The notes under the pieces were generated by a model, which was not told where the DNA came from, ran no database searches, and saw only the letters and a list, made by a program, of their open reading frames with translations. From a virus, in IMG/VR virus record IMGVR_UViG_3300013880_000023: a stretch of 20,726 bases of DNA, one strand, 5' to 3'. Shown in pieces: positions 233 to 17,530 of the stretch. Made by a program: the position numbers and the translations under genes. Position 1 is the stretch's first letter. Each line of letters begins with the position of its first letter.

Positions 233-408
233 TGTGACAGCTGTGACAGCTGTGACACCTTTTATATGATCGGAATCTGCAAACGAGAACGTATATAAAG
301 GTATGCACATTATATATAACGATATATATATATGGGAAGTCTTTATATATAAGGAAAAACATAGAATAGGATAATATAATCGGTGTCACAGGTGTCACAG
401 CTGTCACA
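233..408. repeat. Inverted iteron-like arrays (3 x TGTGACA[G/C]C at 233-259; 3 x reverse complement at 382-408) around a 122-bp AT-rich spacer; candidate replication origin
   Basis: TGTGACAGC-TGTGACAGC-TGTGACACC and GGTGTCACA-GGTGTCACA-GCTGTCACA read directly; spacer contains TATATATA tracts; right arm is 11 bp from the helicase stop codon. Confidence 0.8.
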
Positions 409-412
409 GGTT

Positions 413-419
413 AAAAAAA
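413..419 (-). terminator. Oligo-T (T7) archaeal-type terminator candidate directly after helicase stop
   Basis: TGA followed by TTTTTTT on the minus strand. Confidence 0.4.
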
Positions 420-1820
420 TCATGATATCCAATTATCCAAATCCTCTTTATCATCGCTATTATCATCTTTTATGTTTATACCTATCGCCACCCTCTTTAA
501 TATGCCATCTACTCTCTTTCTATCTAATTTAACTCGTGGTATATCTCCCAATGTTTTAGAGAACTTATCCTTTGATACAGAATCAACACCATTCTCCTCA
601 CACCAATCCTTATAGTGATTGTAAAGATCTGCTACTACAATCCATAGATCAGGCTTTAGTGTGCATGCTTCATCAACAAATGCCATCGCAGAGTTTGACA
701 TCTTCATAAACTCCAGTTTAATATCCTCTACTCCTTTGCTTAAGGTAAATCTGAAGTTATTGCTCTTCAATCGCTTCAATCCTTCTATGCACCAGTTTAA
801 TATCCCAGGCAGCTCTCCTGCTTCAACAATATTCTTATCGAGATCCTTTATTGTTGCAGGATCGTCATCTAAAAACGTATTTGGAAATTTGATGACGAGC
901 ATCCTCTCCCAGAATGCAGTTGTGTTATCTTTTACTGTTGGAAATCTGTTCCCATGTATGATGAACTTGGCAAAGTTGACAAACCGTATTGGGTTTTGTT
1001 TATTTTTCACCTCGGCATCGACAGTATCACCACCGGTCAACATTTTAAACTCAGTGGTCTCCATCTCTCGTTTTGAGTTTGGCTCTGGTATTATATTCGC
1101 CATCTTTCCATACAAGTTTGCCTTTGAGAACCGGTTATCTCCATATAGTTGGTCTAATGGTACAGAGACATAATTTCCATCCCCAAGCAGATATTTTAAA
1201 ATATTGACAACCGTTGATTTGCCGTTTCTACCCCCTCCGTATAGCCAGAAAGACTTATGCGTTGGCATTGCCGGATACAGGCAGTACCCGAAGAACTCCT
1301 GAAGAACGGGAATATCCTCTTGCTCAACAACCTCTGATATGGTCTTTTTAAACAGAGGGCAGTCAGCCGTGGGATCATACTCCACGTCTATCTTGAAGGT
1401 AAAAATCTTCTCTGGATCAAACGGCTCAATCTCAAACGTCTCAAGATTGATCAATCCATTTTTCACAGGCAGATAGTTTTTATTTTTGTTGAACTCTTCC
1501 CGTGGCACATACGTTGCTCGTTTAATGTGATTGATTATCTCGATAACCAGGTGCGTTGTCGCCTTCTCTTGAAATATCTCCTCGATCTTGTTTTTTATGA
1601 ACGTCTCAGCCTCTCGATATATCCCAGCATCAAAATAATATACCGTCTCCGTATCCTCTGATGTTTTGAAACTATAAATAGAAAAAAGTCGTGCAAGGAT
1701 CTTACCAATATCTGGTCTGTATTTCTCATCCAAGCACAACTCGTCAAGATATTCGTTGCCGTCATAATCCAAAATCCGATCCAAAAACTCGATCTTTTTT
1801 GCCTGCTCTTTCTCATCCAT
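420..1820 (-). CDS. D5/P4-family SF3 replicative helicase (D5_N + SF3 ATPase + C-terminal winged helix), no primase domain
   Basis: D5_N-like 'LPVKNGLINLETFEIEPFDPEKIFTFKIDVEYDP', Walker A 'GGGRNGKST', Walker B-like 'NIIPE', motif C 'FIIHGN', 'FWERMLVIKF', C-terminal 'DLYNHYKDWCEENG'; RBS GAGAGGT; start coupled to upstream stop (TAATG). Confidence 0.92.
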   Translation of the reverse strand: MDEKEQAKKIEFLDRILDYDGNEYLDELCLDEKYRPDIGKILARLFSIYSFKTSEDTETVYYFDAGIYREAETFIKNKIEEIFQEKATTHLVIEIINHIKRATYVPREEFNKNKNYLPVKNGLINLETFEIEPFDPEKIFTFKIDVEYDPTADCPLFKKTISEVVEQEDIPVLQEFFGYCLYPAMPTHKSFWLYGGGRNGKSTVVNILKYLLGDGNYVSVPLDQLYGDNRFSKANLYGKMANIIPEPNSKREMETTEFKMLTGGDTVDAEVKNKQNPIRFVNFAKFIIHGNRFPTVKDNTTAFWERMLVIKFPNTFLDDDPATIKDLDKNIVEAGELPGILNWCIEGLKRLKSNNFRFTLSKGVEDIKLEFMKMSNSAMAFVDEACTLKPDLWIVVADLYNHYKDWCEENGVDSVSKDKFSKTLGDIPRVKLDRKRVDGILKRVAIGINIKDDNSDDKEDLDNWIS

Positions 1821-4256: not shown

Positions 4257-4817
4257 ATGAGCTGGGATAAAAGATTGGATTTTGATGAATGGGATCTGAG
4301 GTTCAAGAAGGATATGCACGATCTTGCGAAAGAGAAAGAATATAACGAATTGAAGAAGAGACCTGTACCGGCAACAGTTCTTACCCGTCTTCTTTATACT
4401 TCAATTCTCTTGACTCAGATAGAGAACGGTTCAAGGATATCAGAGGCTGTTGAGGCGGTCTTGAGTTTCAAAAATAACAATGAGAGAATACAAAAGATAA
4501 GGGCACGGAAACGTAAAAAACTGAGCAAGGGCAAAGATGTTGATGTCCTGATAAAGATACCATCTGCCGTAAAAAAACAATATTTAGATCTGGATTATCC
4601 ATTTGAGAAAACATTGAACGGTGTAAAGATATTTGCAGTCCGTTATTACAAGATAAACACGCATTCGCTAAGATATTCTTGGATCGCAAAGATGGGTCGT
4701 GAAGGTATACCTACAAACCTGATCTCCAAAGCTATAAGGCATACGAACATCCAGACGATAGAAAACTATACTGCTGAGGATGAAGCCGACACGATAAAGA
4801 TGAATTTCATAAAATAA
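4257..4817 (+). CDS. Tyrosine recombinase/integrase, catalytic domain only (186 aa)
   Basis: Catalytic residues in order: 'GSRISEA' (R), 'RKRKK' (K), 'HSLR' (H-x-x-R), 'IRHTN' (H), 'ENY' (Y). Confidence 0.9.
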   Translation: MSWDKRLDFDEWDLRFKKDMHDLAKEKEYNELKKRPVPATVLTRLLYTSILLTQIENGSRISEAVEAVLSFKNNNERIQKIRARKRKKLSKGKDVDVLIKIPSAVKKQYLDLDYPFEKTLNGVKIFAVRYYKINTHSLRYSWIAKMGREGIPTNLISKAIRHTNIQTIENYTAEDEADTIKMNFIK

Positions 4818-6307: not shown

Positions 6308-6595
6308 TTAAATTCTAATTGCTTGTACCGTGCTCATGCCTGTCGATCCACCAGCAGCAGATCCGCACAACGCCAATATCGGGCTACACACCGTAACAAT
6401 CGTATCAGTCATGCAACCAACCACCGCTCCTATTCCTCCTCCGATAAATGCTGGTATTATTGTTGGTAAACAACAAAAACACAAGTTTAGTGGTCCACAA
6501 CATATACCGAGCAGTCCCAATGGAGTTCCTGCTAATCCACAACCTATTGTTGCAAGCGCATCATCGTTTTTAAACAATTCTCTAATATGTCTCAT
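6308..6595 (-). CDS. Cys/Gly-rich hydrophobic protein, 95 aa, with MRHIRELFKNDDA leader
   Basis: RBS AGGAGTG; multiple Cys including CC pairs; leader nearly identical to that of 11052-11207. Confidence 0.85.
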   Translation of the reverse strand: MRHIRELFKNDDALATIGCGLAGTPLGLLGICCGPLNLCFCCLPTIIPAFIGGGIGAVVGCMTDTIVTVCSPILALCGSAAGGSTGMSTVQAIRI

Positions 6596-6639
6596 TTTAT
6601 TATCACTCCTTATTTTATCTTATTAATATTTAATACTAT

Positions 6640-6972
6640 TTATTTTTTCTTATGGAGATCAAAGAAATACTTTGCATCTTTCTCAGCCTCTCTTTTTGTC
6701 TCTCGATCAGTCGTAACGTTTGAAAGAGCCTGTAACGCTCTGGCAGTTGCAAGAGCATCTCCGCCATGAGCCCGTAATGCGTTCCTTCTTCTTTCGGCAA
6801 CAGGCATATCTTTAGACCAGTTCATCGTAGTTGTTGGTTTATACCATTTTTTACTTTTAGGCGTCCGTCCCGGTCTCCCTCGATCTTCTACTTTATATGT
6901 AGCAGGGGGCACATACGTCCCATCTTTTCTATGATACCCTTTTCTGTGAACGGTTAGTTTTTTTCGTGCCAT
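6640..6972 (-). CDS. Highly basic protein, 110 aa, candidate genome-condensing/virion core protein
   Basis: K/R-rich; 'KGYHRKDGTYV' motif; located in structural region. Confidence 0.8.
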   Translation of the reverse strand: MARKKLTVHRKGYHRKDGTYVPPATYKVEDRGRPGRTPKSKKWYKPTTTMNWSKDMPVAERRRNALRAHGGDALATARALQALSNVTTDRETKREAEKDAKYFFDLHKKK

Positions 6973-6981
6973 CTTAAATCA
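6929..6981. repeat. 53-bp perfect direct repeat, copy 1 (start of the 110-aa gene)
   Basis: CTATGATACCCTTTTCTGTGAACGGTTAGTTTTTTTCGTGCCATCTTAAATCA identical at 7557-7609. Confidence 0.95.
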
Positions 6982-7545
6982 TACCCTTTTTTTTTGATCT
7001 TTATCGCTTCTATTTATTCTCCTCTCATAATATATACGCCCACTTTTTGATGACCGCCTCCCCGGATGTTTTGCTACTAATTTCTCATCATGTGATCTGC
7101 CACGAGCAGTCTGGTTTCCTATTTGTCGATTGGTTTGTTTCGTTCTCTTTTGTGGTCTTTTAGATTTTTTAGTTCTTATTTTCGTCAATGCACTTTTTGG
7201 TACCCAAAAATCCATACCATTGTTATTTGTCAGCAATAAAGCCTTATCGGTCTTTCGTTTTATTTTTAAGTCTCCGTCGCTCTCTCCTATTAGTATTTGT
7301 AGATCAAGCTTGTTTTTTTTAGCGAACCAATCCGCTATTTGATATTTTTCCCCCTGTATAGATATCAGGCTCTTTTTCCATTTTTCTACATTATCTATAA
7401 ATCCTTTAGTTTTTAATCCGTTTTCATGTTGATATATAAATTCGCCTTTTCCTAAATCAACCGATATCAGTTTTGCACCCGGGTATTTTGCCCTGACATA
7501 TTCTTCTATATCACGCTTACTTATTTTTTTAGATACATCTGCCAT
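6979..7545 (-). CDS. Basic protein, 188 aa, with an R/K-rich C-terminal tail
   Basis: 'KTDKALLL...FWVPKSAL' motif; C-terminal 'HPGRRSSKSGRIYYERRINRSD'; flanked by 53-bp direct repeats. Confidence 0.85.
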   Translation of the reverse strand: MADVSKKISKRDIEEYVRAKYPGAKLISVDLGKGEFIYQHENGLKTKGFIDNVEKWKKSLISIQGEKYQIADWFAKKNKLDLQILIGESDGDLKIKRKTDKALLLTNNNGMDFWVPKSALTKIRTKKSKRPQKRTKQTNRQIGNQTARGRSHDEKLVAKHPGRRSSKSGRIYYERRINRSDKDQKKRV

Positions 7546-7600
7546 GTCGACCAGTCCTATGATACCCTTTTCTGTGAACGGTTAGTTTTTTTCGTGCCAT
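7529..7600 (-). pseudogene. Truncated duplicate of the 110-aa gene start (MARKKLTVHRKGYHRTGRHGRCI*)
   Basis: First 15 codons match 6640-6972 at protein level, then diverge and stop after 23 codons. Confidence 0.7.
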
Positions 7601-7609
7601 CTTAAATCA
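7557..7609. repeat. 53-bp perfect direct repeat, copy 2
   Basis: Identical to 6929-6981 (offset 628). Confidence 0.95.
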
Positions 7610-7618
7610 GATCCTTCT

Positions 7619-7738
7619 TCACCTCTTTTTTCTCCCACGGGACATATCTGCCTCATACACCGACAGCGGATCGCCTTTTACAAAATAGAGCTTGCCCTTC
7701 TGTCGTTTTATTCCAAGATCTTTAATTTTTTTAGCCAT
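7619..7738 (-). CDS. 39-aa basic microprotein resembling chromatin protein Cc1 (MAKKIKDLGIKRQKGKLYFVKGDPLSVYEADMSRGRKKR)
   Basis: RBS AGGAG; 'LGIKR.KG.LYFV....V....M.RG.K' recalls the Cc1 DNA-binding motif; translated by hand. Confidence 0.65.
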   Translation of the reverse strand: MAKKIKDLGIKRQKGKLYFVKGDPLSVYEADMSRGRKKR

Positions 7739-7757
7739 GTTTATAATCTCCTTGTTT

Positions 7758-8759
7758 TTATTTTATTACTTTTTTAGATCTTTCTCTTGCCGTCTTATGA
7801 ATAGATCTCGCTTTGTTGTTTTTAGGCTTTGTTAAATTATTTTTTATTGTAGAGCCAAGTTTTACTTTTTTGCCATTTCTCCACTCATAGACAATAATAT
7901 TAGAACCATACTCATCTGTAAACTCTTTTAGAACGACTGCGTTTGAGTCTTTTACTCCTCTTTTATACCGTCTATGTACCTCAAATCTTTCTTTGTTTGG
8001 TAATATGATTTGGAAATACCTGTCTAAGTTCTCCGCAGGTGAAAAATGAGCACGCCTAATTCTTGAATCGTTATATTTTTTCTCCACATCAGCAACAAAT
8101 AGTTTACCCTTTCTGTTCTTTCTTAAATCACCGGTCAGTAGAATTCTATCATATTTTATGTTGCTCTCTGGATCTCCCTCAACATAGCTATAATATCCGG
8201 TGGTTTTGTTTTTTATGTCTGACACTCGACCGACTGTCTCAAACTCTGTCATCTTCTCTATCGTGTTTCTATCCCTCGTCATTGATCCGCTACCGTGTTG
8301 CCGTGCATGGACTAACTCATGCGTATATACCCCCTCAGAGTCGATAAAATCTGGAGATATAGATATATAATTTAGTTTTGTAAAAAGATTATATGCATTT
8401 TGCCCCACAGCATGGTGAGATTTTAATGTTCCCTCTATATACACTCGCCCGATTTGTCTTCTCTCATCTGCAGTAAAGTCCTCCATTAAAACCTTTTTTG
8501 CCATCTGGTGAATTTTAGATATGGTTGCTTTTGTGCCACCCGTATATTTATATGATGTTTTTTTAATCCTCATTACATCATTTCTTGGATGGTCTATCCC
8601 GTTGAGATCGTATCTTTTATATCCACCCATTGCCCAATCGTTATATGTATCAGGAGAGTATGGCTTTATTTTTGCCATTTTGTTATAATCTATTGCCTTA
8701 GATCTATTGGATACGGCATCTGTTACCCAATCCTTCTTGCTGATTGATTTTTTGCTCAT
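7758..8759 (-). CDS. Basic protein, 333 aa, with a zincin-like metallopeptidase motif
   Basis: 'VYTHELVHARQH' (HExxH at 8307-8321) followed by 'IEKMTEFE' (possible third ligand); basic N- and C-termini. Confidence 0.75.
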   Translation of the reverse strand: MSKKSISKKDWVTDAVSNRSKAIDYNKMAKIKPYSPDTYNDWAMGGYKRYDLNGIDHPRNDVMRIKKTSYKYTGGTKATISKIHQMAKKVLMEDFTADERRQIGRVYIEGTLKSHHAVGQNAYNLFTKLNYISISPDFIDSEGVYTHELVHARQHGSGSMTRDRNTIEKMTEFETVGRVSDIKNKTTGYYSYVEGDPESNIKYDRILLTGDLRKNRKGKLFVADVEKKYNDSRIRRAHFSPAENLDRYFQIILPNKERFEVHRRYKRGVKDSNAVVLKEFTDEYGSNIIVYEWRNGKKVKLGSTIKNNLTKPKNNKARSIHKTARERSKKVIK

Positions 8760-8760
8760 C

Positions 8761-9048
8761 TTATCGTCTCACCTCTCTTTTAGATCTCTTTCTCGGTTTC
8801 CTATTCTTTAACGCTTTCAGGTTTTTTATCTCGGCAGCGTGGATCTTAGCCAATGCGGCAAAATGATCGCCTTGTTCTCTCGCATATACCGCCAGCCTTC
8901 GCAACCTGTTCTTATCTGCTTTAGTCTCCGCCTGTTTCATCAACTCCATCCGATCTTTATACTTCTTCTTGTACTCGTCAACAAGACCTAACGCCTCTTT
9001 ATGCTCCCGCTGCTCCGTTTTTATCATGCTGTCATAAGATTCAGTCAT
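8761..9048 (-). CDS. Basic coiled-coil protein, 95 aa
   Basis: Helical, charged sequence; abuts downstream gene. Confidence 0.8.
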   Translation of the reverse strand: MTESYDSMIKTEQREHKEALGLVDEYKKKYKDRMELMKQAETKADKNRLRRLAVYAREQGDHFAALAKIHAAEIKNLKALKNRKPRKRSKREVRR

Positions 9049-9093
9049 GTTTTATCACACATCTGATTGGTTTTATTAATTTGTTATTTTGTT

Positions 9094-9987
9094 TTAAACA
9101 GGTGCTATTGGTACTGCAAGAACCGCCAGCCACGGGACTGCAATAGCCAGACCAATACCATATTTTAAGAGCGTCCCTATATTACCTGCTTCGGGCAATA
9201 GTGAGAATATCTCGATAAACACGGCGATAGACCAGATGTACGCTATTATCTGACCAATCCTGAACGGATCTTTTAGACCGAACAGGTCAGAGATGCCAAA
9301 ATCGTAAGTCATGCACCATTTTGCAGTTAATAGTGGGTTAAACACTCCGCCAGCATATTTGAGTATTTGAGTACCCATTGAGGCAGCCATACCATACAAC
9401 GCTCTTGTTGTACGCTCTGTTATTGATTGCTCTTGCCATCCTGCTGACTGGGTTCTGCTCGTTAAGATGTTTTGCATTTGCTCGCTGTTAATAGACTCGT
9501 TGTAATATTTCTCCAATACTGATGAGTTCAATGCAGGCTGAAAGACGATAAAATCTGATCCATAAACGTTAGTCGTTCTGGTCGGTCCGATTATCTCATT
9601 TACCGGCACAGAGAAATAAACGGGATATGCTGCAGCGTACATGTTCTCATGCTGAAACATAACTCTACCATCCCTGATTGGTGCTATCATCTCTCCACTC
9701 TGAACCTTTGCCCATGACTCAGCTACGGTAGTTCCACTGCCAGCATGCACATGTGATAACGTGAATGGTTCAAACTTGCCAACGTTTTCTGGCAATAAAC
9801 TTTTGGATGGAGTGCCCTCAGTGGTGACAGTGATCTGAAGATCTTTAGCAACATTGGATGACGATATTTGTTCTGCCTCTGCAAAGATCTGATCACTATA
9901 TCCTGCAGGCACTCCAGGGGCAAACATGGCTACGATAAGAAAATAAACAGCACCGAATATGATCAGGCTGGTTAGATACCTGCTCAT
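9094..9987 (-). CDS. Membrane-anchored virion (tail/adsorption-like) protein, 297 aa
   Basis: N-terminal signal/TM, soluble middle, hydrophobic C-terminal helices; adjacent to capsid genes. Confidence 0.75.
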   Translation of the reverse strand: MSRYLTSLIIFGAVYFLIVAMFAPGVPAGYSDQIFAEAEQISSSNVAKDLQITVTTEGTPSKSLLPENVGKFEPFTLSHVHAGSGTTVAESWAKVQSGEMIAPIRDGRVMFQHENMYAAAYPVYFSVPVNEIIGPTRTTNVYGSDFIVFQPALNSSVLEKYYNESINSEQMQNILTSRTQSAGWQEQSITERTTRALYGMAASMGTQILKYAGGVFNPLLTAKWCMTYDFGISDLFGLKDPFRIGQIIAYIWSIAVFIEIFSLLPEAGNIGTLLKYGIGLAIAVPWLAVLAVPIAPV

Positions 9988-9988
9988 C

Positions 9989-10882
9989 CTAACTTCCTCC
10001 GCCCATCGTTCTTGTAAAAGATATAATCACTAATGCAACGGCAAAGATCGCTATCACGAATATTACATAAGTAGGTACGATCATTATGCCAGTTGATGCT
10101 GTTATTCCTGCACATAGCAATAAGATCCCTACCAGACCAACAAGACCAACACGCCAGCCTCCTATCTGTGCGAATATTGCTGATACGAATAGGATTATGA
10201 GAAGATAGATGATCTCTTTGTGCGTCGATACGATGGATATTCCTTCTTGAATAACTGTCTTAGTTGTTGTGATTAACGCTCCAATACTTGTATCCCCGCT
10301 TGCAGTGGCGGGTAGTATTGATCCTAATAAACCTAAATCTCCCGACTGTTTTGCTGGAGGTGATACTGGCGAGACGGTTGGTTGATATAATGTTGTCTTA
10401 TTAGATGTAGGAATATATACAGGATATACGGGTGTGATTGTTGTTGGTGCTGATGCAGTCCCTATTGTTGGTCTCTCTGCGTATGTAACACCATACGTGG
10501 CGGGCACAGATCCATACTGCTGAGGCGTATCAACTGGATATAAAATGTCTTTTGTATCTGTTTCTATCTGTGGTGTTACAAACTGACCTGCCTCTGTCTG
10601 TTTGGCTTGCTGTTGATCTAATCCATACGTGGCAGGGAGTACTTCGGTGCCAAGTTTCTTCATTCCAGAAAAGAATTGTTCCTTAATTTGGTCTGCTGTT
10701 AGACCACTCCTTGTCACGTCTTGTTTTACCTGACCAGAAGTAGTTTGTGTTGTTGGTTGAGATTGGTTTTCTTGGGCAATGGCAGAGATTGGACTAAAAA
10801 ACGAGAATAAAACAATAGCAAGTGCTAAACAGAGTGAGATAATACATGTAACTTTTGTCCGTCTTGCCATGCTTTTAGCCAT
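9989..10882 (-). CDS. Membrane-anchored virion protein, 297 aa, with Thr/Pro/Gln-rich ectodomain and about three C-terminal TM helices (fusellovirus VP4-like topology)
   Basis: N-terminal signal; repeated PATYG; three hydrophobic stretches at the C-terminus. Confidence 0.75.
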   Translation of the reverse strand: MAKSMARRTKVTCIISLCLALAIVLFSFFSPISAIAQENQSQPTTQTTSGQVKQDVTRSGLTADQIKEQFFSGMKKLGTEVLPATYGLDQQQAKQTEAGQFVTPQIETDTKDILYPVDTPQQYGSVPATYGVTYAERPTIGTASAPTTITPVYPVYIPTSNKTTLYQPTVSPVSPPAKQSGDLGLLGSILPATASGDTSIGALITTTKTVIQEGISIVSTHKEIIYLLIILFVSAIFAQIGGWRVGLVGLVGILLLCAGITASTGIMIVPTYVIFVIAIFAVALVIISFTRTMGGGS

Positions 10883-10948
10883 TTTAATACCCTTGCGGTT
10901 ATTAATTTTGTATTTGTATGATTCATATTCTACGATATCTGTCTATTT

Positions 10949-11050
10949 CTATTTACCTGCAGCCATCCTGCTAATGAACAAGGCAAGAGATCTAAACAAT
11001 GCCTGAACACAATACACCACATTCTGTGACGATGGTAAGAACAGTCCCAT
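10949..11050 (-). CDS. 33-aa peptide MGLFLPSSQNVVYCVQALFRSLALFISRMAAGK
   Basis: RBS GGAGG within upstream gene end; ends in GK. Confidence 0.7.
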   Translation of the reverse strand: MGLFLPSSQNVVYCVQALFRSLALFISRMAAGK

Positions 11051-11051
11051 T

Positions 11052-11207
11052 TTAGAACCCTCCACAAAAAGCTGATAATATTGCACCGACTAACGTTCCA
11101 AGTTCTGCCCATAATGCCTGCCAGATGGGACAGAAATATAAAATCGTTCCGTCTATCATCATACCAATGGCATCATCGTTTTTAAACAATTCTTTTATAT
11201 GTCTCAT
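11052..11207 (-). CDS. 51-aa peptide with leader: MRHIKELFKNDDAIGMMIDGTILYFCPIWQALWAELGTLVGAILSAFCGGF
   Basis: RBS AGGAGGTG; 38/40 nt identical to the start of 6308-6595. Confidence 0.85.
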   Translation of the reverse strand: MRHIKELFKNDDAIGMMIDGTILYFCPIWQALWAELGTLVGAILSAFCGGF

Positions 11208-11224
11208 TTACAATCAGCACCTCC

Positions 11225-11506
11225 TTAATCAGAATCATCCTTGTCATTGCCGAACCAACCCAGAATAGCAAAGATTAGCCCTATCATAAACATGACTATC
11301 ACGATTATTGGTATATATCCCCAGATCATTCCGAGCAGAGTAGGATTCATCTCCGTACCAGCCAGACTCTCAGGAAGACCACCAAACATCTGGAACGCTA
11401 TCGGGAACAAGATGCCTGCAAGTATGATACCGATGCCTATGGCCACTACTGCCTCAACCATCTCCTTGATCGTGAACGCCGCATCTTCATTTTTTATCAG
11501 TTTCAT
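11225..11506 (-). CDS. Spindle-shaped-virus-type capsid protein paralogue, 93 aa, with a class III-like leader (MKLIKNEDA)
   Basis: Two hydrophobic helices 'IGIGIILAGILFPIAF' and 'MIWGYIPIIVIVMFMIGLIF' mirror the fusellovirus VP1/VP3 pattern (IGIVLLPVI...LLNLVPLFYIL); RBS AGGAG. Confidence 0.75.
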   Translation of the reverse strand: MKLIKNEDAAFTIKEMVEAVVAIGIGIILAGILFPIAFQMFGGLPESLAGTEMNPTLLGMIWGYIPIIVIVMFMIGLIFAILGWFGNDKDDSD

Positions 11507-11602: not shown

Positions 11603-11836
11603 TTATCTTCCACTGTCTTTTATAGTAGACATAGCGTAATATATAATGCCGATTGCAATCGCCAATATGACCATCATTGGGATCAGTGTCCATAGATTCT
11701 CAATACCAGCCATTGCACCAGTAAACTCTATGTCAGCTGACGAGAACATATTCAATGCCACTGGTATCAACGCAGCAACGATTATTAAACCGATTGCAAT
11801 GTTTATTATAGTCTCTATATCGAATGGTTTAGCCAT
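11603..11836 (-). CDS. Major capsid protein candidate of spindle-shaped-virus type, 77 aa
   Basis: 'IAIGLIIVAALIPVAL...TG...LWTLIPMMVILAIAIG' matches the fusellovirus/His1 two-helix MCP pattern; own AT-rich promoter and RBS GAGGTG. Confidence 0.8.
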   Translation of the reverse strand: MAKPFDIETIINIAIGLIIVAALIPVALNMFSSADIEFTGAMAGIENLWTLIPMMVILAIAIGIIYYAMSTIKDSGR

Positions 11837-12259: not shown

Positions 12260-12538
12260 TTATTTGCCTGTTGCTCCCTGCATTACTGCCGGAACGGCTG
12301 CACTTGCACCACCAGATGACCCGCCGCCAAATATTCCACCAATCAACGATACCAAAGATCCGCACATTGTTGAACATGATGACAAAATACCCGAGCACAT
12401 TGATGACGTAGACGGTAATATATTTGCACACGTATTACCGATCGCCAATGCTGTTGTATTTGATATCAAAGACGTGCATATCTGTGGAAGACCACAACAA
12501 ACTGCACTACAACAAAACTGAGTTATTATTCCTGACAT
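12260..12538 (-). CDS. Cys/Ser/Gly-rich hydrophobic protein, 92 aa, ending in GK
   Basis: RBS AGGAGGT; many Cys, almost no charged residues. Confidence 0.85.
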   Translation of the reverse strand: MSGIITQFCCSAVCCGLPQICTSLISNTTALAIGNTCANILPSTSSMCSGILSSCSTMCGSLVSLIGGIFGGGSSGGASAAVPAVMQGATGK

Positions 12539-17468: not shown

Positions 17469-17530
17469 TATTATTATCGACATTGTCACTCTTTTTTATC
17501 TTTTTTATTTTGTTGTTTTTTTCTTTTTTT
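17469..17530. repeat. 62-bp direct repeat, copy 2; encodes a stub MSIII*
   Basis: Single mismatch at 17484 vs 17113. Confidence 0.95.

Follow-up and report, generated by a model that had tools for sequence, protein, structure and literature searches.

Here, we analysed a stretch of viral DNA of 20,726 nucleotides (nt), the IMG/VR virus record IMGVR_UViG_3300013880_000023, which is referred to in its full length as the window. The window represents a spindle-shaped archaeal virus of ~20.7 kb from anaerobic digester or sludge communities; it is AT-rich, with a guanine-plus-cytosine (GC) content of 33–43% across 1-kb sub-windows, and its late genes form a long block running leftward. Inside this block lie MCP1 and MCP2, the two genes for capsid proteins of the His1/SSV1 type (MCP, major capsid protein), together with two small genes encoding proteins of 51 and 95 amino acids (aa). 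MCP2 and both small proteins begin with a short charged leader, and these leaders, their exchange between genes and their likely processing are our subject. An earlier note, made from the sequence of the window, had proposed that a capsid protein and two unrelated Cys-containing peptides share a single prepilin-like leader. Translation of the three open reading frames (ORFs) returned the N-termini exactly as that note had written them, and a GGAG-type ribosome-binding site precedes each of the three ORFs (Table).

Table. Features of the window. Positions count from its first letter; a slash marks a predicted leader junction.
Feature	Position	Strand	Remarks
MCP2, 93 aa, second His1/SSV1-type capsid paralogue, 9-residue leader MKLIKNEDA/AFTIKEM...	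11225..11506	(-)	
Leader codons of MCP2 (9 codons)	11480..11506	(-)	8/9 residues as in archaellin leaders MKLFKNEDA (L093, L127) and MKLLKNEDA (L068)
51-aa precursor, leader MRHIKELFKNDDA/, then 38-aa hydrophobic mature part	11052..11207	(-)	Directly downstream of MCP2
Leader codons of the 51-aa gene	11169..11207	(-)	Transplanted copy of the leader of the 95-aa gene
95-aa Gly/Cys-rich membrane-protein precursor, leader MRHIRELFKNDDA/	6308..6595	(-)	Last in the leftward block of late genes
Leader codons of the 95-aa gene	6557..6595	(-)	Donor of the shared leader
MCP1, 77 aa, His1_capsid family, leaderless allele	11603..11836	(-)	Pfam PF25665
333-aa basic soluble protein with HELVH motif	7758..8759	(-)	Sole protease-like viral candidate
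D5-type primase-helicase	420-1820	(-)	
Small tyrosine recombinase	4257-4817	(+)	
57-nt inverted arms of repeated CTGTGACAG-type units	222-278 and 363-419		AT-rich spacer between arms; candidate replication origin
63-nt direct repeat, 95% identity	6929-6991 and 7557-7619		
62-nt direct repeat, 98% identity	17098-17159 and 17469-17530		Spacing 371 nt
33-aa ORF (MGLFLPSSQNVVYC...)	10949-11050	(-)	Starts immediately behind the stop codon of the 51-aa gene
92-aa Cys/Gly-rich protein, leaderless	12260-12538	(-)	

Profile searches placed MCP1 in the Pfam family His1_capsid (37.4 bits, cut-off 27). MCP2 reached 16.7 bits with the same model and matched the MCP1 alignment in hhalign (95.6%, E 1.2e-8), which identifies it at the level of sequence profiles as a paralogue of MCP1. 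The AF2 model of MCP2 is a two-helix hairpin (helices 7–41 and 57–89; predicted local distance difference test [pLDDT] 76), for which Foldseek and VIA-align returned generic helical hairpins only (Z ≤7.6, no standout). The 95-aa protein contains 9 Cys and 15 Gly residues, with overlapping hydrophobic segments over residues 17–82, and the 51-aa gene directly follows MCP2 in all related contigs that reach past MCP2. These relatives (L007–L020) comprise short Logan/ENA contigs and three sludge/digester metagenome contigs, and 13 relatives were retrieved when 1.84 billion proteins were searched with a profile built from MCP2 homologues.

Mature archaellins of Methanomicrobia start with FTGLEAAIV. 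Scanning a species-genome collection for this start revealed 120 loci (L021–L140) from Methanomicrobiales, Methanocellales, Methanosarcinales, Archaeoglobi and ANME-1, which yielded 165 archaellin starts and 141 distinct leaders. A position matrix covering positions −7 to −1 was built from the 141 distinct cellular leaders only and was run on all ATG-initiated ORFs of at least 30 aa in the six frames of the window (n = 295). MCP2 (14.9 bits), the 95-aa protein (14.4 bits) and the 51-aa protein (14.4 bits) took ranks 1–3, and among the high scorers just these three have a hydrophobic stretch behind the leader; the mean Kyte–Doolittle value over the 22 residues after the junction was 1.73, 1.46 and 0.98 in the three proteins and at most 0.3 in the seven matrix hits that ranked next. 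At fixed thresholds, the three hits in the window compare with a mean of 0.01 over 200 shuffles and with none in the reversed sequence. Applied to 92.6 kb from other viruses, His1 and SSV1 among them, the same thresholds gave no hits; in 858 kb of archaeal DNA they gave two hits beyond the training set, one of which was another archaellin. A FlaFind-like regular expression was also tried; it missed genuine archaellin leaders as well and was discarded.

The resemblance also holds for individual leaders. Genuine archaellin leaders include MKLFKNEDA, MKLLKNEDA, MKKLVKNEDA, MKRVIRNEDA and MRSLFQHDDA, and the first two, besides matching the MCP2 leader, resemble the viral ...LFKNDDA leaders. The viral leaders are 9 and 13 residues long, with D/E at −2/−3 and K at −5, as in the short charged leaders of class III; position −1 holds Gly in 85 and Ala in 80 of the 165 archaellin leaders. 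Archaellin leaders are described as short, with a small residue at −1 and a charged residue (acidic or basic) at −2/−3 followed by a hydrophobic core; leaders of 3–12 residues get processed, and ArlK and PibD accept 5- and 3-residue leaders (PMC10117864). The top ranking of the three proteins by a matrix that had seen archaellins only supports the class III reading of the earlier note, and their leaders are strongly supported, by sequence, as class III (prepilin/archaellin-type) signals.

Conservation of the junction across homologues, on which the reading of the earlier note depends, was likewise found. The best matrix site falls at the same aligned junction in every MCP2 homologue, down to 30% identity, while the leader itself ranges from 9 to ~31 residues and the sequence upstream of the junction is free. 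Residue −1 is Gly or Ala at the best-scoring aligned junction in all homologues of MCP2, of the 51-aa and 95-aa proteins and of leader-bearing MCP1. Junctions of the MCP2 type read ...DDKG/AFTLKEM, ...DDDRA/AFTLTEV, ...EDKG/IFEISEV or ...DGRA/FTLTKIM, and position −2 is often K/R in distant MCP2 homologues. In orthologues of the 51-aa protein, NDD[AG]/IG is retained beneath three unrelated leaders.

MCP1 provides a natural comparison of alleles with and without a leader. The earlier note had stated that this capsid paralogue lacks the leader, which is true of the window; across the group it is a polymorphism, with close relatives carrying a 16-codon leader at this position. The window, L009 and L020 have the leaderless form, whereas MCP1 of L015, L016 and L017 carries MAISKERFV[GS]F[LI]KNT[VA]A/, and the difference is a clean 48-nt (16-codon) in-frame indel directly after ATGGCA. 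In the alignment, the leaderless start M-AKPFD lines up with ...KNTVA/AAALD of the leader-bearing alleles, and the predicted MCP1 cut thus reproduces the N-terminus of the leaderless allele. Since leaderless alleles begin exactly at the predicted cut, the extension appears dispensable for the mature protein.

At the DNA level, the match of 38/40 nt between the two small genes that the earlier note had reported (6558–6597 versus 11170–11209) is correct, with two differences, and a repeat finder delimited it as 6553–6597 and 11165–11209 (45 nt, 91% identity). The 23-nt exact core of this repeat occurs at only these two sites of the window, with 0 expected from 100 shuffles. The identity is bounded precisely by the ATG on one side and the Ala(−1) codon on the other: 36/39 nt agree inside the leader, whereas the flanks agree at 13/40 nt upstream and at 11/36 nt downstream. 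A BLASTP comparison of the 95-aa and 51-aa proteins was anchored on the leader, where 12/13 residues are identical, with the other identities scattered across a 15-residue gap. The single leader that the earlier note had assigned to all three genes is common to the two small proteins only; the capsid leader agrees with it at just 12/39 nt and belongs to the same class without being the same sequence.

Comparison with the relatives revealed the direction of this transfer. In the 95-aa family (window, L008, L020 and L007), the leader is identical at the protein level in all four members, and the leader DNA of the window matches that of each of the other three at 37/39 nt. Orthologues of the 51-aa gene, in turn, have other leaders, MFKDLCSNDDA/ in L014 and MSNFNFKSFLTNDDG/ in L020, whose DNA is unrelated to the MRHI leader (13–14/39), and the 51-aa gene of the window, L009, L016 and L017 has the leader of the 95-aa gene at 36/39 with flanks at random level. 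From the older L014/L020-type leaders and a match confined by random flanks, it follows that the 95-aa leader was copied over an older equivalent in the 51-aa gene, and this overwriting explains the 38/40-nt identity. AAYGATGATGC (N-D-D-A), common to both leaders, is a plausible crossover point. The proposal of the earlier note that the leader had been grafted onto variable cargo did not survive in this form, as the 51-aa family already had a class III-like leader that was replaced in the clade of the window.

A second exchange involves MCP2, which is identical between the window and L016 from codon +9 on and is preceded in the two by different 5′ regions and leaders (MKLIKNEDA versus MKTNILTGLIRLRHDETA); judged from these alleles, MCP2 leaders were swapped between near-identical viruses. 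The leader is thus a portable module, as seen in the MCP1 indel, the MCP2 exchange and the overwritten 51-aa leader, and the latter offers a clear case of signal-peptide modules copied between viral genes.

The small genes and their surroundings showed further variation. Between the 95-aa alleles of L007 (588–866) and the window, the flanks, the leader and the 3′ half are 97–100% identical, but over the ~100 nt that follow the leader the identity drops to random level; here, the first hydrophobic, Cys-rich segment was replaced in cassette-like fashion. The leaderless 92-aa protein is the third Cys/Gly-rich protein of the window and is conserved in L016 and L018–L019; its BLASTP match to the 95-aa protein was not significant (E 0.087), and paralogy between the two was not shown. 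In the related virus L018, the small ORF MASLIIDDAA/IATGYQVINLG (2667–2813, 6.3 bits) may be another leader-bearing membrane peptide, alongside several Cys/Gly-rich ones that have no leader. The conserved 33-aa ORF behind the 51-aa gene was likewise called in L010 and L017, and L018–L020 contain a counterpart.

Taken together, we consider it likely that MCP2, the 51-aa protein and the 95-aa protein are class III precursors trimmed by a prepilin-type peptidase of the host, with the leader serving as an exchangeable module. In the route that we infer, which extends to cleavage, enzyme and topology and to a place of the two small proteins in the virion, the hydrophobic segment behind the leader would enter the host membrane and the leader would stay in the cytoplasm. 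A host GxGD aspartic prepilin-type peptidase (ArlK/FlaK, PibD or EppA class) would then cut after Ala/Gly at −1 or, alternatively for MCP2, one residue later and before Phe, and the trimmed proteins would become competent for packing into the budding virion. The capsid leader equals a host-type archaellin leader at 8/9 residues, and one enzyme class therefore becomes the prime candidate. The earlier note had left the choice between a host and a viral peptidase; a host enzyme is favoured by the leader class, and the window encodes no prepilin peptidase of its own. As Peptidase_A24 was detected in none of the six window ORFs of at least 200 aa, the host enzyme is the simplest candidate, and a host prepilin-type peptidase probably matures the virion proteins. 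In the open-access literature that we searched, we found nothing that connects capsid maturation with PibD, FlaK or class III signals, nor any published statement of class III signals on capsid proteins of spindle-shaped viruses.

Other readings of the leaders were weighed against this proposal. The leaders might be propeptides removed by the viral 333-aa HExxH protein or by an unrelated host protease, with the archaellin likeness being coincidental or convergent. The gene for this protein sits in the late block and is kept in L020, and its HELVH motif is accompanied by weak Atlas leads to M78/SprT-like metallopeptidases whose scores (feature score 0.88, structural template-modelling score 0.27–0.30) lie below reliability thresholds; for SSV1, moreover, a viral, a cellular and an autocatalytic protease have all been left open (PMC5748691). 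However, the protein has no Pfam or PHROG match, its Atlas model has a pLDDT of 0.48, and it appears soluble and very basic, whereas the scissile site would lie at the membrane face. SSV1, which shows the same junction logic, has no protease-like ORF (PMC5748691), and the leaders of the window are nearly identical (8/9 residues) to those of a cellular substrate class; we therefore regard this explanation as improbable. We judge it equally improbable that the leaders are kept, or that their removal is beside the point, and that they mimic archaellin or pilin precursors, competing for the peptidase or entering the assembly platform and thereby blocking motility or excluding superinfection. Mimicry would fit the near identity to archaellin leaders, the two carriers that are tiny hydrophobic proteins without an assigned structural role, and the common use of pili as the entry route of archaeal viruses (PMC7217056). 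Yet the strongest carrier is a capsid paralogue, the MCP1 alleles with and without the extension point to a dispensable and removable leader, and the 51-aa gene is conserved in the structural block directly downstream of MCP2.

The analogy drawn by the earlier note to precursors of ribosomally synthesized and post-translationally modified peptides (RiPPs), in which a conserved leader guides an enzyme for modification or export to Cys-rich cores that vary, has to be rejected as highly improbable. The system does resemble RiPP precursors in that a conserved leader is followed by a variable region: one and the same leader stands on two unrelated cores, and two 95-aa alleles that are otherwise 97–100% identical differ at random level over ~100 nt after the leader. 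In contrast to RiPP precursors, the cognate enzymes were not found: neither a RiPP enzyme nor a transporter with a peptidase domain nor a radical SAM/YcaO/Lan domain was detected in the 20 largest ORFs. Moreover, the mature parts consist of membrane-like, hydrophobic segments, the C-terminus of the 95-aa family is conserved, and the leader belongs to a secretion/assembly signal class that is also present on a capsid protein and matches archaellins.

Several observations nevertheless weigh against maturation by an archaellin-type pathway. The Gly at +3 that is near-invariant in archaellins is replaced by T, T and M in the viral proteins, and MCP2 has K and E residues within the first eight positions after the junction; cleavage of Methanococcus maripaludis FlaB2 by ArlK in vitro, for its part, does not require the +3 Gly (PMC10117864). 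MCP1 is leaderless in this very virus, which argues that a leader is not required for membrane insertion or assembly as such. Pilin and archaellin profiles, among them Arch_flagellin, N_methyl and Class_IIIsignal of Pfam, did not match MCP2 in Pfam (E up to 1) or NCBIfam (E up to 10), nor did PDB sequences, and one family member touched ComGE in NCBIfam at E 0.56; by these comparisons, the leader-bearing proteins carry the signal yet are not pilins.

The remaining counter-arguments concern the host. Across the archaellin loci, the −2 residue differs by order: D/E/N is typical of Methanomicrobiales, Methanocellales have A, and K/R is used by Methanosarcinales, Archaeoglobi and ANME-1; D/E at −2 occurs in 0/17 archaellins of Methanosarcinales. 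The viral leaders follow the style of Methanomicrobiales, which we take as a hint to the host. Genomes of the Methanoculleus type, in turn, have a GC content well above that of the window, and a similar published virus has been assigned to Methanosarcina (PMC12451623). The hint from the leader style thus conflicts with the low GC and with the assignment of this look-alike. In general, a leader style that differs between archaeal orders is a sequence-based clue to the host, and the −2 residue of archaellin leaders could be used to predict the hosts of viruses with such leaders.

Elsewhere in the window, the inverted arms that make up the candidate replication origin adjoin the primase-helicase gene. 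The 63-nt direct repeat is another copied gene start: it contains a second copy of the ribosome-binding region and the initial codons (MARKKLTVHRKGYH) of a 110-aa gene and leaves a short stub upstream of a 188-aa gene; the 62-nt direct repeat lies within an array of small ORFs. Searches for further carriers of the system revealed no relatives in IMG/VR, where MCP2 peptide patterns gave zero confirmed matches and the DNA pattern for ELFKNDDA gave six matches, every one inside unrelated proteins. A profile scan of genome contigs with the MCP2 alignment detected no provirus, and a phage collection contained neither similar DNA nor a similar MCP.

Spindle-shaped virions are a common archaea-specific type whose capsid maturation and membrane assembly are unsettled. 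In the VP1 precursors of fuselloviruses (L142:12567–13001 and L143–L148), [KR][GA] stands right before a conserved Glu and is followed by a hydrophobic helix in 7/7 cases, with junctions such as ...KLTKG/EATNIG, ...KLTRG/E, ...RITKG/E, ...KLAKA/E and ...KLRRA/E; by its residues, [KR][GA]/E is a class III site in the style of Sulfolobales and PibD. In SSV1, trimming of VP1 exposes Glu as the N-terminus; the protease is given as 'unknown', and the five residues before the cut are essential, but the Glu itself is not (PMC5748691). PibD is not named in that study (PMC5748691), and a 2022 review of SSV1 mentions no protease (PMC9608457). A Sulfolobus islandicus strain lacking pibD was not infected by SSV9, which was explained there by the loss of pili (PMC7217056). 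His1 VP21 (L141:7341–7562) starts MVEIDDG/VEMAVGIFVV and reaches 8.3 bits in the matrix of methanogen archaellins; this start may be a 7-residue class III-like leader, a likeness that is suggestive only. We see about an even chance that the host class III signal peptidase (PibD/ArlK) matures the major capsid protein as a rule in spindle viruses of the His1/SSV1 type, with a style that tracks the archaellin and pilin leaders of the host: [KR][GA]/E in fuselloviruses of Sulfolobales, N[DE]x[AG]/ in the methanogen virus studied here and, perhaps, MVEIDDG/ in VP21 of His1. If true, the SSV1 VP1 protease, unknown since the 1980s, would be identified, and the capsid protein would join assembly as a pilin subunit does, with the leader as a freely exchangeable module that the virus also puts on minor membrane proteins.

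Among known systems, the closest likeness of the leaders is to pre-archaellins (ArlB/FlaB of Methanomicrobiales, cut by ArlK/FlaK or PibD), with which they share the length and pattern M-K-L-[FLI]-K-N-E-D-A, G/A at −1 and acidic residues at −2/−3, and then F-T, a Glu shortly afterwards and a hydrophobic helix. Unlike in pre-archaellins, the mature part forms either a capsid hairpin of two helices or a small peptide rich in Cys/Gly and lacks the +3 Gly, MCP2 has an extra Ala between junction and Phe, and homology at the level of hidden Markov models was not found. SSV1 shares a homologous capsid family and a paralogue pair in which VP1 has an N-terminal extension and VP3, like MCP1 here, has none; the cut in its VP1 directly precedes the first hydrophobic helix, and −1 is G/A and −2 charged, as in all seven fuselloviruses examined. 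The SSV leaders, however, are 16 to ~70 residues long with K/R at −2, compared with 9–18 residues (window and near relatives; up to ~31 in distant MCP2 homologues) and D/E/N at −2 here, and the SSV1 extension is essential, whereas MCP1 here naturally exists without one. In a broader sense, the predicted route recalls that of inovirus pVIII, a small helical membrane-inserted coat protein that is matured by a host signal peptidase before extrusion at the membrane. The pVIII signal, however, is of class I and is removed by leader peptidase at the outer face, whereas the signal predicted here is of the class III type and would be removed by a GxGD aspartic peptidase at the cytoplasmic face.

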